Source of the DNA: Crocosphaera subtropica ATCC 51142
Lineage (GTDB): Bacteria > Cyanobacteriota > Cyanobacteriia > Cyanobacteriales > Microcystaceae
NCBI RefSeq assembly: GCF_000017845.1
Contig: NC_010546.1
Coordinates: forward strand, 4,140,001-4,172,000
DNA length: 32,000 nucleotides
Reading direction: 5' to 3'
Shown here piece after piece: positions 27,883-32,000 of this stretch. Numbering within the stretch: position 1 is the stretch's first letter; each line of letters opens with the position of its first letter. A program made the translations under genes and the position numbers. The notes beneath the pieces were generated by a model. The model worked only from the letters and a program-made list of their open reading frames with translations. It was not told the origin of the DNA and did not search any database.

Positions 27883-28188
27883 TCAAAAACTCCCTGAAAT
27901 AATAAATTTTCCACCTGCTACTAAAAAACTTACAACGACAGTAATCAAAATCCCAATTAATGTCCAAATTAATGCCCACACTAATGTCCAAATTTGATCT
28001 TGTTGTGAGGTTTTAATCTCTTTTATGTCTTCTTGGAGAGCATTAATTTCTACTGTTAGGACTTCTCTTTGTCCTTTGGCTTCTGTTAGTTCAATTTTGT
28101 TGTCTCTAAGTTCTTTTTGTAAACTATCTAATTTTTTGTTAATCTCTGTGAGAATTTCTGTTAAATTTTGTTCACTGGTCTTTGACAT
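27883..28188 (-). CDS. Tail-anchored coiled-coil membrane protein, function unknown
   Basis: 101 aa. The N-terminal ~60 aa are heptad-like and charged (LTEINKKLDSLQKELRDNKIELTEAKGQREVLTVEINALQEDIKEIK). A Trp-rich transmembrane helix follows (IWTLVWALIWTLIGILITVVVSFLVAG). It is transcribed divergently from the ACAD-like gene. Confidence 0.55.
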   Translation of the reverse strand: MSKTSEQNLTEILTEINKKLDSLQKELRDNKIELTEAKGQREVLTVEINALQEDIKEIKTSQQDQIWTLVWALIWTLIGILITVVVSFLVAGGKFIISGSF

Positions 28189-28422
28189 CTTTATTTATTC
28201 TTTTTCTAATCTTTGAGAGATTATTTGCCAGCAGCTTCTTGATTTTGTCAAGTTTATTTTATAAATCTTATTAACTATTACCCAAAAAATATCAAGAACT
28301 TATTACTCATAAAGCTTGCTTACTTTACATAAACCCGTTAGAATAGCGATTAATTTTTGTGAAGGTTATAATATACCCTGCAAAGGAATAGCCTAAAGCA
28401 AAGCTACCTAAGGAGGAACGTC

Positions 28423-30231
28423 ATGCACCAACTCAAGCAATATTGGGTTGCTGAAAGACTTGACAAAGACTTAGGAGATCCGTGGACTCCTGAGAACGTA
28501 ATGTCGTTTAAGCAGGTCGTTGAGATCGACGAGAAAGAGGAATTTCCTCACTCAGAGATCGAATGGCTTTACAACTGGAAACTGCAACATTACTATGTTC
28601 CGGCGGAGTGTGGTGGGGAGTTTACTTCCTTTGAGGAATTTTTAGCATTTGTTCGTGTTTTATGTCGTCGAGATCAAACCATAGGGATCGCATTTACCAC
28701 CCTATTTTGGTCTTTTATCACTTGGATGGCAGGAACAGAAGAACAAAAGCAACAATTAGCCCAATACATCAAAAACGAAAACGGGGCGATGTGTTTAGGC
28801 TATTCTGAACGAGAACATGGGAGTGATCTTGTTGGGGGTGATTTAACGGCGCAAAAAGTCCCAGGAGGGTACATCCTCAACGGGGAAAAATGGCCGATTA
28901 ACCGCGCTACTATTTCAGGAATATCTTATATTTTGGCGAAAACCGATCCAGAGGGGGGACCAAAATGTTTAACCCTGTTTATGGTAGATAAACGTCAATT
29001 AAATCCTGATAATTATTACAATTTACCAAAAATTTTAACCCACGGTATCCGCGCATCGGATATGAGTGGGATCGGCTTTAAAGATTGTTTTGTTCCTGAC
29101 TCCATGCGAATTAAAGAGGAAGGAGACGGATTAGAATTTGCTTTAAAAGGCTTTCAAGTGACTCGGACGTTCTGCGCTGCCTTTTCTTTGGGTGCAGCCG
29201 ACACTGCTTTGAGAACCACCTTAAATTTTGCAATCAAACGGGTTGTTTATGGGAAAAAGGTTATCGATATTCCCCAACCCCGTAAAGTGCTGGTGGATGC
29301 TTTCTTAGATATCTTAATCTGTGATTGCGAAACCATTGGTGCAGCAAGAGGATTTCATATTATCCCCGAACAATTTAGCGTTTGGGCCTCGGTGACTAAA
29401 TATTTCGTCACCACCCAAATAGAAACCATGATCAACAGCGTTTATACAGTCCTAGGATCACGGTTCTATATGCGAGAAGAACACGACTGGGGTATCTTCC
29501 AAAAGGTGCTACGGGATAATTCCATCATCAGTATGTTTGATGGTAGTACAGTGGTTAATTTACACGCGCTGATGCTTCAGTTTAGACAATTAACCAAACA
29601 AAGATCCCGTCGTAAACCAGAAGCGATCGCAGATTTACAAAAACGTTTAGAAGCCATCTTTTCCCTAGAGCAACCCTTACCTTCCTTTAACGGAGAGAAA
29701 CTCGAATTATTTGGGCGAGGGGCCGATGATCCCCTACAAGGATTAGAAATAGCCCTACAACAGCTAGAAGCGTTTAAAGAAACCACAGACACAGATGAGG
29801 AAGTGTTAGAAAAGCTGATAGTTTTGGGTAATTTAGTTTTAGAGGAATTAAACGCCCACGATGAGTTAATTGCTAACTCAAAGTTTGAATATGGCCATGA
29901 TCAATCCCCAGAATTGTTTGAAGTTGCCAAAACCTACTGTACCCTTCATGCTGCGGCCTGTTGTTTACAGATGTGGTTATACAATCGAACAATTTTAGGG
30001 GACTTTTTTGCTCAAGGGGAATGGTTAGTCTTAAGCTTACACCGACTCTTAAGAACAATGCGTCCCTTACCTTACAGCATTTCTGATGTTTATGTAGAAA
30101 ATACCGCCCAAGAACTGCTAAAACTTTATAAAGAAGATAAACTGTTTTCAATCGTTCCTTTTCAATTAGCTCATTCACCGATAAACGAGGATCGCTCTTA
30201 TGCAACTTCAAAGCTCCAGCTACAAGCTTAA
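28423..30231 (+). CDS. Acyl-CoA dehydrogenase-family flavoprotein, atypical (602 aa, long C-terminal extension)
   Basis: Strong SD AGGAGG (28411-28416). ACAD middle-domain pattern GYSEREHGSDLVGGDLTAQKVPGGYILNGEKWPINRA. C-terminal-domain pattern VLRDNSIISMFDGSTVVNL, with Asp where classic ACADs have the catalytic Glu. About 229 residues follow that motif. Confidence 0.85.
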   Translation: MHQLKQYWVAERLDKDLGDPWTPENVMSFKQVVEIDEKEEFPHSEIEWLYNWKLQHYYVPAECGGEFTSFEEFLAFVRVLCRRDQTIGIAFTTLFWSFITWMAGTEEQKQQLAQYIKNENGAMCLGYSEREHGSDLVGGDLTAQKVPGGYILNGEKWPINRATISGISYILAKTDPEGGPKCLTLFMVDKRQLNPDNYYNLPKILTHGIRASDMSGIGFKDCFVPDSMRIKEEGDGLEFALKGFQVTRTFCAAFSLGAADTALRTTLNFAIKRVVYGKKVIDIPQPRKVLVDAFLDILICDCETIGAARGFHIIPEQFSVWASVTKYFVTTQIETMINSVYTVLGSRFYMREEHDWGIFQKVLRDNSIISMFDGSTVVNLHALMLQFRQLTKQRSRRKPEAIADLQKRLEAIFSLEQPLPSFNGEKLELFGRGADDPLQGLEIALQQLEAFKETTDTDEEVLEKLIVLGNLVLEELNAHDELIANSKFEYGHDQSPELFEVAKTYCTLHAAACCLQMWLYNRTILGDFFAQGEWLVLSLHRLLRTMRPLPYSISDVYVENTAQELLKLYKEDKLFSIVPFQLAHSPINEDRSYATSKLQLQA

Positions 30232-30613
30232 TAACCAAGCAACAGCAACTACCACGCCAGTCGAAACTGTCCAAAATTGGCTGATTAAGCAGTTAGCTGA
30301 GCAGTTACGTCTTGACCCTGCTAGTATTAAACTCACCGAACCGTTTACCCGCTATGGCCTTGATTCTATTGATGCTGTGACCCTAGTAGGAGACTTAGAA
30401 GACTGGTTAGACTTAGACCTTCCTGATACTTTATTTTGGGATCATCCCACTGTAGAAAAATCAGCCAAGTATCTTGAAGAAAATTATGATCTTGCTGATG
30501 CAGTGAGTAATATTGAATCAGAAGAAACAGTAACCGAAACACCCATTAATGAAACTCAAGATAATAATAACGACAAAAAAGGATGGGGAAATCTTTTTGG
30601 AAGATTCAAGTAA
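30200..30613 (+). CDS. Stand-alone acyl/peptidyl carrier protein (phosphopantetheine-binding) with a ~45-aa C-terminal tail
   Basis: Contains FTRYGLDSIDAVTLVGDLEDWLDLDLPDTLFWDHPTVEKSAKYL. This is the PP-binding signature with the attachment Ser56 (TCT 30365-30367). GAGGA SD at 30187-30191. The ATG overlaps the ACAD-like gene by 32 nt. Confidence 0.85.
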   Translation: MQLQSSSYKLNNQATATTTPVETVQNWLIKQLAEQLRLDPASIKLTEPFTRYGLDSIDAVTLVGDLEDWLDLDLPDTLFWDHPTVEKSAKYLEENYDLADAVSNIESEETVTETPINETQDNNNDKKGWGNLFGRFK

Positions 30614-30635
30614 AAAATAAACCATAAAATATCAA

Positions 30636-30676
30636 TAGGGTTAGCCAAGAAGAAAACTTGACTAACCCTAATTTTT
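30636..30676 (+). terminator. Rho-independent terminator after the carrier-protein gene
   Basis: TAGGGTTAG-C-CAAG (30636-30649) pairs with CTTG-A-CTAACCCTA (30657-30670). That gives 9 + 4 bp with one mismatch and a 7-nt loop, followed by ATTTTTA. Confidence 0.7.
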
Positions 30677-30865
30677 AATAGAACACTTCTCAAAATCAAA
30701 CGTCTTAAACCCCCAATTATTTCATGGCAACAATGACAACTCCGAACTCAGGTTTATGAGCGACTGAAACGTGACTTGACCTGCTATAGTATTAAAAATT
30801 CTATCTTCTGTTTCTCTAGAACTCAATAATTGGGTTTCATAGCTTAAATATAAATTATTATATGT

Positions 30866-32000
30866 ATGAATTACTCTGATTTTTCTTTTTGGTGGATTTT
30901 AATTTTATTTAGCGTTCCCTTTTTTACGGTTCGTTATTTAGCGCAGTCAGCTAATCTATGGCGTGGAATTTTTGATAGTATTGGTCTATTAGCTTTATCG
31001 TTTCTGCTCTTTTTCCATGCAAGTCGCTCTAGCTTTGTTATTTTTGTCGCTGAGCTTATTTTTAACTATTTGATGGTGCAATGGATGTTGCGATCGCAAG
31101 GTTGGAAAGCAAAGATAATTGCCACTATTCTTATTGTTATTAATGTTTCTATTTTAGCCTATTTTAAATACTTAATTTTCTTTGTTGAGGACGTTATTGG
31201 TTTATTTATCAATGTACCCGAAAATTGGCAAGAATTATCCCCCATTCCTGTTAAAAATCGTATTCCTCCAGGAGTTTCATTTTATACCTTTCAGATGGTT
31301 GCTTTTGTAGTAGATTCTCTTAATGCCAGAAAAAAGAAACCTATTTCTTTTATTGATTATCTTAATTTTGTTGCTTTTTTCCCTCAAATTGTAGCAGGAC
31401 CGATTGAAAGAAGAAAAGATTTATTTCCTCAGATTGAATCTTTTCGTTTTAAATTTAAGGTAGAAAACTTTGAAACAGGGTTAAGATGGATTACTTTGGG
31501 TTTATTTATGAAGTTTGTTTTAGCGGATAATATTGCTCCTTATATTAATTTAGAAATTGCTGATAATGCTTGGACAGTTTGGTTTTTTGCTTTATTATTT
31601 ACCCTAAGAATTTACTTTGATTTTGCGGGTTATAGTTTTGTTGCTATCGGTATTGCCAGCTTTTTAGGGGTTAAATTAACGGTTAACTTTTTAGCCCCTT
31701 ATACCTCCCAAAGTATCAATGAATTTTGGCGACGTTGGCACATTACCCTAAGTACCTGGTTTAGAGATTATGTCTTTTTACCGTTAATGGGATCAAATAA
31801 AAAATGGGCAGCTTTTTACCTATTCTTAACTTTTACGTTATCAGGATTTTGGCATGGTGCTGCCTGGAATTTCATCATCTGGGGTGCTTATCACGGTGCA
31901 TTATTGTTAGTATTAAGGTATTTAGGTCGTCCTTTCTATGGCTTAGTCGGAAGTTATTTTCCTCGTCCTCAAATTGTCTCTTGGTTTTTAACCTTTGCCT
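30866..32000 (+). CDS. MBOAT-family membrane O-acyltransferase (AlgI/DltB/PatA type), N-terminal 378 codons; runs off the window
   Basis: Not in the ORF track because it has no in-window stop. Hand translation from ATG 30866 gives MNYSDFSFWWILILF...GVSFYTFQMVAFVVD...FFPQIVAGPIERRKD...FWRRWHITLSTWFRDYVFLPL...SGFWHGAAWNFIIWGAYHG. It stays open to 32000, and the invariant MBOAT His is in RRWHITLS (CAC 31739-31741). Confidence 0.9.
   Translation, partial: MNYSDFSFWWILILFSVPFFTVRYLAQSANLWRGIFDSIGLLALSFLLFFHASRSSFVIFVAELIFNYLMVQWMLRSQGWKAKIIATILIVINVSILAYFKYLIFFVEDVIGLFINVPENWQELSPIPVKNRIPPGVSFYTFQMVAFVVDSLNARKKKPISFIDYLNFVAFFPQIVAGPIERRKDLFPQIESFRFKFKVENFETGLRWITLGLFMKFVLADNIAPYINLEIADNAWTVWFFALLFTLRIYFDFAGYSFVAIGIASFLGVKLTVNFLAPYTSQSINEFWRRWHITLSTWFRDYVFLPLMGSNKKWAAFYLFLTFTLSGFWHGAAWNFIIWGAYHGALLLVLRYLGRPFYGLVGSYFPRPQIVSWFLTFA

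Follow-up and report, generated by a model that had tools for sequence, protein, structure and literature searches.

A candidate surface acylation cluster linking an acyl carrier protein to a PatA/AlgI-type MBOAT in Crocosphaera subtropica ATCC 51142 and other cyanobacteria

Genes at the locus

The genome of Crocosphaera subtropica ATCC 51142 contains, at the right edge of a stretch of 32,000 nucleotides (NC_010546.1, positions 4,140,001 to 4,172,000; hereafter the window), three genes on the + strand that code for an acyl-CoA dehydrogenase (ACAD), a stand-alone acyl carrier protein (ACP), together with one membrane-bound O-acyltransferase (MBOAT), here named MBOAT1. An earlier note on this DNA had proposed that they form a Dlt-like, carrier-fed module for acylation of the cell surface. 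Open reading frame (ORF) listing and translation found the three genes where that note had placed them, and profile searches matched the ACAD domains, PP-binding and MBOAT families that it had named. The remainder of the window has housekeeping genes, namely those for GrpE and LeuA, a ribosomal-protein operon, and SecY, RpoA, TruA and RF-1. Rfam and tRNA scans of the window gave no matches. The features of the locus, in window coordinates, are the following:

28307..28422, + strand: upstream leader, left edge of the conserved block (nucleotide homology)
28423..30231, + strand: ACAD, 602 aa (Pfam domains, AlphaFold2 and Foldseek)
30200..30231, + strand: ACAD/ACP overlap, 32 nt (read from sequence)
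30200..30613, + strand: stand-alone ACP, 137 aa (PP-binding E 3e-16)
30636..30670, + strand: terminator-like hairpin with T-run, 23 nt after the ACP stop (folding)
30866..32000, running past the window end, + strand: MBOAT1, codons 1-378 of 485 (Pfam MBOAT, E 6e-28)

The ACAD matches Pfam Acyl-CoA_dh_N, _M and _1 (E 6e-5, 2e-11 and 7e-12) over residues 32-380 only. Its AlphaFold2 model, with a predicted local distance difference test score (pLDDT) of 90.6, superposes on Bcd and MCAD with a TM-score of about 0.9, and is aligned by Foldseek over the full length with long ACADs of the VLCAD type and with 3owa from B. anthracis; pLDDT is below 50 in residues 587-602, which are encoded within the ACP overlap. 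The position of the catalytic base is occupied by Asp373 (codon 29539-29541) and not by Glu; of 34 family members, 23 have Asp at this site, 5 Glu, 5 His and 1 Gly, so that Asp or Glu is found in 28/34. A three-domain acyl-CoA dehydrogenase fold with a carboxylate at the base position is confirmed on the basis of the predicted structure. The protein is 97% identical to its counterpart in Crocosphaera chwakensis and belongs to a family of 637 clusters at 50% identity (E below 1e-30), whose matches span the full length, C-terminal 220 residues included; weak sequence matches to the prolyl-carrier-protein dehydrogenases PigA and RedW (4irn, 6af6) were also obtained.

The ACP carries the claimed phosphopantetheine-attachment site, Ser56 within GLDS (codon 30365-30367), and its best NCBIfam matches are ACPs of polyketide synthases (PKS) and of fatty-acid synthesis, the D-alanyl carrier-protein model being absent among the ten matched families. 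Its start codon lies inside the ACAD gene, as had been read before, and is preceded by GAGGA 8 nt upstream of the ATG; the 32-nt overlap has a length of 29-35 nt in most of the 64 loci measured, an arrangement that suggests translational coupling. At the C-terminus (30500-30613), a linker of some 30 residues, acidic and rich in Pro and Ala, leads to the tail KGWGNLFGRFK. The motif KGWGxL(F/W)G(R/K) is present in almost all listed cyanobacterial ACPs, a few being divergent or truncated, and the tail may be a membrane- or partner-docking peptide. It was considered as a tracker of MBOAT1 presence and rejected, as the ACPs of Microcystis and Pannus have it too.

ACP and MBOAT1 are separated by a spacer of 252 nt (30614-30865), in which a 13-bp hairpin is followed by AUUUUUAAU. 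The hairpin has a folding free energy of -16.5 kcal/mol (z = -4.0; 0/200 shuffles fold as well) and is the sole one of its kind within the window. It may act as a terminator or attenuator. The earlier reading of a terminator between the two genes is right as to the presence of a terminator-like hairpin, but the element is restricted to the genus Crocosphaera, where it is kept with base changes in stem and loop (L013, L015, L016, L017 and L019); it is not found in other genera.

Conservation of the cluster in cyanobacteria

Relatives of the ACAD were collected with a 9-sequence alignment from one genome per species, which gave 584 relatives; the best 80, all cyanobacterial, were analysed by clustering the ORFs of their loci and mapping the window proteins onto the clusters, and the synteny counts refer to these best 80 of 584. 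ACAD identity in the 80 loci is 62-98%. The usual same-strand order is a fatty-acid--AMP ligase (FAAL), ACAD, ACP, MBOAT1, an SGNH-fold protein, an NDH-2-like flavoprotein, an HTTM/DCC protein, a second MBOAT (MBOAT2) and its 406-aa partner. ACP adjoins ACAD in 78/80 loci, FAAL lies directly upstream of ACAD in at least 47/69, and in 62 of the 74 loci with sufficient flank a same-strand MBOAT1 follows, no more than 4 kb downstream, the ACAD-ACP-MBOAT1 order spanning Chroococcales, Oscillatoriales, Nostocales and Synechococcales. The loci that lack a downstream MBOAT1 are nine of Microcystis, those of Pannus and C. watsonii WH 8501, and one metagenome-assembled genome. When the look-up was anchored on MBOAT1 instead, ACAD-ACP was found immediately upstream in 3/4 cases (L177, L178 and L179). 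As a background, 80 generic MBOAT loci, 31-46% identical, were taken from metagenomes by means of the motifs EFWRRWH and FWHGAAW: none of them has an ACAD and a single one has a carrier-protein match, on the opposite strand. The ACAD-ACP-MBOAT1 arrangement is thus far beyond chance, and the co-occurrence in other genomes on which the initial proposal had been made to depend is found in four orders. The idea of one carrier-linked module for surface acylation is sustained as regards the synteny of the trio, while direct transfer from ACP to MBOAT is a step suggested by gene order only. The proteins of the conserved block include neither a condensation domain or ketosynthase nor any further acyltransferase.

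The FAAL, of 612 aa, combines an AMP-binding domain with a DIP2-like C-terminal domain and scores 448 bits against the fatty-acid--AMP ligase model of NCBIfam, 411 against FadD32 and 101 against DltA, the models for amino-acid adenylases or DltA reaching 101-149 bits only. The view that an ACAD occupies the place of the adenylase has to be abandoned for the relatives, since most of them have this ligase directly upstream of the ACAD. In the window itself there is no adenylase, and a glyoxalase-family gene and a 101-aa ORF stand upstream of ACAD instead of FAAL.

The SGNH-fold protein, of 312 aa, bears a membrane helix at its N-terminus, its GGSGA and DTHxH motifs are invariant, and no Pfam or NCBIfam family was matched. 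Its AlphaFold2 model (pLDDT 89) finds SGNH esterases as best matches, with rhamnogalacturonan acetylesterase 1deo at E 6e-6, and also TesA and sialate and xylan esterases; DltD (7dxm) is at rank 13 with a probability of 0.82. The gene is present in 40/80 loci, mostly directly after MBOAT1, and the family counts 389 matches; among the best 120, all organism-named ones are cyanobacterial. In Crocosphaera, ACAD-ACP-MBOAT1-NDH-2 are kept at the locus described here, and the SGNH and HTTM/DCC genes are found at another, the SGNH copies being 72-78% identical. One such copy, on a contig from the sample of Logan contig L001 (see below), adjoins the gene of the 623-aa HTTM/DCC protein and a Leptospira-type putative glycosyltransferase. 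It had been noted that no DltD was in view; none is present in the window, but a putative DltD-like partner with an SGNH fold is encoded in 40 loci and, in Crocosphaera, at the second locus. In Gloeocapsa (L179), FAAL-ACAD-ACP-MBOAT1 stand alone, with a gap of 6 nt between ACP and MBOAT1 and no adjacent SGNH gene. Hence the ACP-MBOAT1 adjacency outlasts the displacement of the SGNH gene both in Crocosphaera and in Gloeocapsa.

MBOAT1 and its shuttle motif

The missing end of MBOAT1 was obtained from Logan contig L001, which is 100% identical to the window. The full-length protein has 485 aa and ends with ...PSEFIYFEF, a motif that lies beyond the window end; every MBOAT1 orthologue ends with FIYF(E/D/A)F. 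The catalytic His claimed in WRRWHITLS is His292 (codon 31739-31741), and both H292 and Y482 are invariant in the MBOAT1 alignment (A4). In the Dlt system the FxYxxF acyl shuttle is found on a separate microprotein, DltX, and in PatA and further MBOATs that use acetyl-CoA it forms a fused C-terminal part of the enzyme; the acyl group travels to the SGNH partner on the shuttle Tyr, and non-Dlt MBOAT/SGNH pathways work without a carrier protein (PMC12148441). The classification of the protein as a Dlt-like MBOAT was not upheld: against the DltB equivalog model, NCBIfam TIGR04091, MBOAT1 scores 181 bits and MBOAT2 144 bits with a cut-off of 375, the match to the solved DltB structure amounts to 106 bits and covers aa 136-349 only, and the C-terminal FxYxxF is fused as in PatA and AlgI. 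MBOAT1 is therefore of the PatA/AlgI type in structure, yet it is tied genomically to a carrier protein. A tblastn search of MBOAT1 against plasmids returned generic MBOATs only.

Related cassettes outside cyanobacteria

Homologous FAAL-ACAD-ACP trios are found in other phyla within natural-product clusters. In Acinetobacter baumannii the order is LuxR, FAAL, ACAD, ACP, nonribosomal peptide synthetase (NRPS) and MMPL, and in Ralstonia FAAL, ACAD, ACP, PKS and NRPS. The window ACAD is 36% identical to the Acinetobacter ACAD over 97% of the query and 36-39% identical to the Ralstonia ACADs over 85%; the FAAL, ACAD and ACP of the two genera score 512-620, 422-477 and 69-73 bits, respectively, against the cyanobacterial profiles. 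Their ACPs, of 86 and 95 aa, are too short for the linker and tail found in cyanobacteria. The Acinetobacter genes correspond to A1S_0112-0119. The cluster A1S_0112-A1S_0119 makes the lipopeptide acinetin 505, which has a C15 acyl chain; A1S_0112 is proposed to load the ACP A1S_0114, and A1S_0113 is predicted to modify the carrier-bound intermediate (PMC5376624). From this homology the cyanobacterial trio can be read as a cassette that supplies a lipid-chain starter. The earlier note had named travel of the ACAD-ACP pair with PKS or NRPS genes as a sign against its proposal: such travel is indeed seen outside cyanobacteria, but the conserved cyanobacterial block has no such domain. What is new in cyanobacteria is what comes after the cassette, namely an MBOAT and not a condensation domain or a ketosynthase.

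Proposed pathway and alternatives

The cluster may encode an ACP-fed, ACAD-tailored fatty-acyl MBOAT-SGNH system for surface acylation, a reading to which, from gene content and order, we give about an even chance. In such a pathway the FAAL would activate a fatty acid and load it on the ACP, as its family membership implies, and the VLCAD-like ACAD would oxidize the ACP-bound chain, most likely by alpha,beta-desaturation, with the proteobacterial trio, a predicted supplier of acyl starters for lipopeptide and polyketide assembly lines, as precedent. By analogy with the delivery from DltC to DltB/DltX, and with PatA, the acyl-ACP would then dock on the cytoplasmic face of MBOAT1, and MBOAT1 would use its invariant His to place the acyl group, on the periplasmic side, on the Tyr of the FIYFEF at its own C-terminus. 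Finally, the membrane-anchored SGNH-fold protein would take the acyl group on its Ser and esterify an envelope glycoconjugate. The ACP-fed reading is the most economical because the block holds no other consumer of acyl-ACP and because the ACP-MBOAT1 adjacency survives rearrangements. The more specific proposal, in which a FAAL-loaded, ACAD-desaturated fatty acyl-ACP is the direct donor for a PatA/AlgI-type MBOAT, and the chain passes through the C-terminal Tyr to the SGNH transferase for lipidation of a surface polymer, is more tentative, and we place it somewhat short of an even chance.

A number of observations weigh against an ACP-fed MBOAT1. The link between ACP and MBOAT1 consists of gene order. 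The characterised fused-shuttle MBOATs all use an acyl-CoA donor and no carrier protein, and the bacterial MBOAT-SGNH systems described in the literature covered here move small groups only, acetyl or D-alanyl (PMC12148441). In Crocosphaera the strong hairpin lies between ACP and MBOAT1, and no FAAL adjoins the ACAD in this genome, nor was one located elsewhere in it within the reach of the search. In Microcystis (L009, L026-L032, L035 and L067, with ACAD-ACP only), an ACAD-ACP pair 76% identical is followed by cox (cytochrome oxidase) genes, with neither FAAL nor MBOAT1 beside it, and the best database matches included no orthologue of MBOAT1 or of the SGNH partner; the pair may therefore serve a use independent of MBOAT1. 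In Pannus, MBOAT1 (two copies), SGNH and NDH-2 genes lie on another contig than ACAD-ACP, and on a soil-metagenome contig an MBOAT1-type gene is accompanied by a similar SGNH partner, with no FAAL, ACAD or ACP in the 3.4 kb upstream. Confidence in the ACP-fed reading is held at its middling level because the support is synteny alone and because of the fused shuttle, Pannus, the soil contig and Microcystis. The divergent genes upstream of the pair in Microcystis and Rippkaea were examined as a common alternative acyltransferase and rejected, since they are unrelated.

The same observations would fit two cassettes lying side by side, that is, a conventional MBOAT1-SGNH pair that resembles PatA/PatB or AlgI/AlgJ and uses acyl-CoA, probably acetyl-CoA, and a FAAL-ACAD-ACP cassette whose product is consumed by an unlinked enzyme, possibly for the same envelope product or else for a different lipid. 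The fused FxYxxF typical of acyl-CoA users without carrier proteins, the separate location of MBOAT1-SGNH-NDH-2 in Pannus, the soil MBOAT1-type and SGNH pair without the cassette, the lone ACAD-ACP of Microcystis, the feeding of NRPS/PKS and not MBOATs by the cassette in other phyla, and the Crocosphaera hairpin dividing ACP from MBOAT1 all speak for this arrangement. However, the conserved block encodes no other acyl-ACP consumer, order and strand are kept in 62/74 loci over four orders, a carrier protein is near generic MBOATs in 1/80 only, and ACP stays adjacent to MBOAT1 after removal of the SGNH gene from the locus in Crocosphaera and, with its 6-nt spacer, in Gloeocapsa L179; two independent cassettes, the main alternative, are regarded as possible and rather unlikely. 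A different cargo is less probable still: the carrier could hold a small or unusual acid (amino or hydroxy) that is oxidised as by prolyl-carrier-protein dehydrogenases, closer to Dlt chemistry, as the weak ACAD matches to PigA and RedW (4irn, 6af6) and the small groups moved by known bacterial MBOAT-SGNH systems would suggest, but the ligase of the relatives fits FAAL families (448 vs 101-149 bits), the ACAD is VLCAD-like over its full length and the product of the homologous Acinetobacter cassette has a C15 acyl chain (PMC5376624), which leaves this option improbable. That the ACAD-ACP pair is a remnant or satellite of a pathway to lipopeptides or polyketides, with a functionally meaningless MBOAT neighbourhood, is very improbable: homologous trios do occur in NRPS/PKS clusters of Acinetobacter, Ralstonia and Streptomyces, and cyanobacteria are rich in such pathways, but no NRPS/PKS domain is found in the conserved neighbour families of the 80 loci, the gene order is kept in 62/74 and an ACAD identity of 62-98% across the phylum speaks for purifying selection on a conserved function.

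Relation to known systems

The cluster is a hybrid that combines the logic of Dlt with an MBOAT-SGNH pair of the PatA/AlgI type and with a starter cassette of natural-product pathways. With the Dlt system of Firmicutes it shares an adenylating loader, a stand-alone carrier protein gene beside an MBOAT, the invariant His, and an FxYxxF Tyr together with a membrane-anchored SGNH-fold protein that would complete the transfer outside the cell. It differs in that the loader, in the relatives, is a FAAL and not a D-alanine ligase, an ACAD stands between loader and carrier, the score of MBOAT1 on the DltB model is 181 bits vs the cut-off of 375, and the shuttle motif is fused to MBOAT1 while in Dlt it is on the DltX microprotein. 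Moreover, the host is a Gram-negative phototroph, and such bacteria are without teichoic acids.

PatA/PatB, AlgI/AlgJ/AlgX and WssH/WssI share with the cluster an MBOAT of some 485 aa, whose C-terminal FxYxxF is placed on extra helices, and a distinct SGNH partner anchored in the membrane, which is encoded just downstream in most relatives. Those systems use acetyl-CoA without a carrier; conversely, here the FAAL-ACAD-ACP cassette directly precedes MBOAT1 in most genomes, an ACP immediately upstream, as in 62/74 loci, is atypical for the class, and the SGNH partner comes from a narrow family without a Pfam model. The acinetin 505 and Ralstonia cassettes have homologous FAAL, ACAD and ACP in the same order, with an ACAD identity of 36-38% over the full length, C-terminal helical domain included, but there the acyl-ACP goes to a condensation domain or a ketosynthase and here MBOAT1 is next, and the cyanobacterial ACPs have the linker and the KGWGxLF tail. 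The eukaryotic MBOATs HHAT, PORCN and GOAT are acyl-CoA users that act directly on proteins, with no SGNH partner and no carrier. If the ACP-fed reading is true, the likeness to these enzymes would lie in an MBOAT that takes a fatty acyl group from the cytoplasmic side of the membrane to an acceptor beyond it; the analysis covered the Pfam MBOAT membership of the window protein.

Full-text literature searches gave no description of the cluster, in agreement with the earlier statement that no characterised system is known to have such a composition, and reviews on FAALs and on fatty acids in cyanobacteria do not mention a link to MBOATs. Two types of bacterial MBOAT-SGNH system are described, Dlt, with carrier, DltX and D-alanine, and the acetyl-CoA-fed, fused-shuttle type, which is carrier-less (PMC12148441). 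The cyanobacterial cluster joins a fused-shuttle MBOAT with a dedicated carrier, a fatty-acid ligase and a tailoring dehydrogenase, and is conserved over much of a major phylum. If the carrier is the donor, bacterial MBOATs would have a wider range of donors than is known, a natural-product starter cassette would be employed in cell-surface chemistry, and the envelope or exopolymer of cyanobacteria would bear a lipid modification not yet described, which might affect surface hydrophobicity, aggregation, the formation of sheaths and mats, and resistance to grazing or phage. Direct donation of a fatty acyl group from ACP, if true, would make this the first carrier-fed MBOAT outside Dlt, the first bacterial MBOAT-SGNH system that moves a long acyl chain, and a functional bacterial counterpart of Hedgehog, Wnt and ghrelin acylation.

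Neighbouring genes and strain observations

Examples of further cluster members are located as follows, in locus coordinates:

L001 3594-4844; L084 14858-18024; L091 10001-12876; L178 10429-13643: NDH-2 and HTTM/DCC genes
L083 11967-14692; also L040, L045, L063-L065, L068, L071, L074 and L082: MBOAT2 pair
L096 7147-8118: FkbM gene

The NDH-2-like flavoprotein is encoded in 51/80 loci and the HTTM/DCC protein in 41/80. The latter, of 623 aa, consists of an HTTM/LMF1-like membrane domain and a DCC1-like thiol-disulfide oxidoreductase domain, and gave no match to PDB sequences, alone or as a profile. The combination of a quinone reductase with a homologue of the vitamin-K-dependent carboxylase recalls the FSP1/GGCX vitamin K cycle, and the cyanobacterial hosts make phylloquinone; NDH-2 and HTTM/DCC may provide a quinone-linked redox step in the same pathway. 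MBOAT2, found in about 25 genomes, is a paralogue 30-37% identical, every copy of which ends with FLYFQF; it closes the cluster together with its 406-aa partner, which has a weak resemblance to DUF1574 and is present in 19 genomes. This pair may act on the same target as MBOAT1. Some loci have as neighbours an ArnC-like GT2 (7/80), GT-C-like membrane proteins, LPG_synthase_TM proteins or an FkbM methyltransferase, and these point to a glycan target, that is, to modification of a periplasmic glycoconjugate. The FkbM gene is located between ACP and MBOAT1 (L024, L025, L033 and L075) or just upstream of MBOAT1, and the ArnC-like GT2, LPG_synthase_TM and GT-C-like genes are downstream in L056, L038 and L178. 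One MBOAT locus with an AMP-ligase match (L100) was discarded, as it has no carrier protein and the ligase lies past an unannotated ORF, with no sign of a link to the MBOAT.

Rosetta-stone fusions were also sought, and the ACAD relatives of 774-1188 aa carry ACAD domains only, with no ligase, ACP or MBOAT. Three long relatives consist of two ACAD units in tandem; tandem fusions or adjacent paralogue pairs are represented by P0127, P0155 and P0162 and by L094 (7256-10773). In Streptomyces such ACAD pairs adjoin PfaD/PKS genes, which suggests that they are heteromeric long ACADs for polyketide or lipid tailoring.

As regards the strain context, the window DNA is 91-94% identical to that of C. 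chwakensis and Cyanothece sp. BG0011. Homology to the other Crocosphaera loci starts at 28307-28311 in 9/10 of them and at 28389 in L019, and the leader between this edge and the ACAD start probably holds the promoter and the 5' untranslated region. Compared with the ten other Crocosphaera loci, the DNA left of 28307 is found in this strain only; this flank contains RF-1, the glyoxalase-family gene and the 101-aa ORF (27883-28188, minus strand), which has coiled-coil and transmembrane features, and its strain-specific nature indicates that the conserved block was relocated. On the other side, L001 continues beyond the window with the MBOAT1 stop codon overlapping the start of a 416-aa NDH-2-like gene, followed by unrelated genes, and no adenylase or SGNH gene was found within 10 kb.

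In C. watsonii WH 8501 the locus (L018 11746-16279) is decayed: a 2.2-kb insertion sequence element with a 479-aa transposase has entered precisely where ACAD and ACP overlap, homology stops just past the ACP hairpin, where a transposase-like gene is found, and MBOAT1 and NDH-2 are missing. WH 8501 is a small-cell, low-exopolysaccharide strain, a hint that the cluster may be connected with exopolymer. Finally, a contig labelled 'Candidatus Gracilibacteria bacterium' (L021, JAAUUT010000087.1) carries FAAL-ACAD-ACP-MBOAT1 with an ACAD 82% identical to that of Crocosphaera, and is almost certainly a mis-binned cyanobacterial contig.

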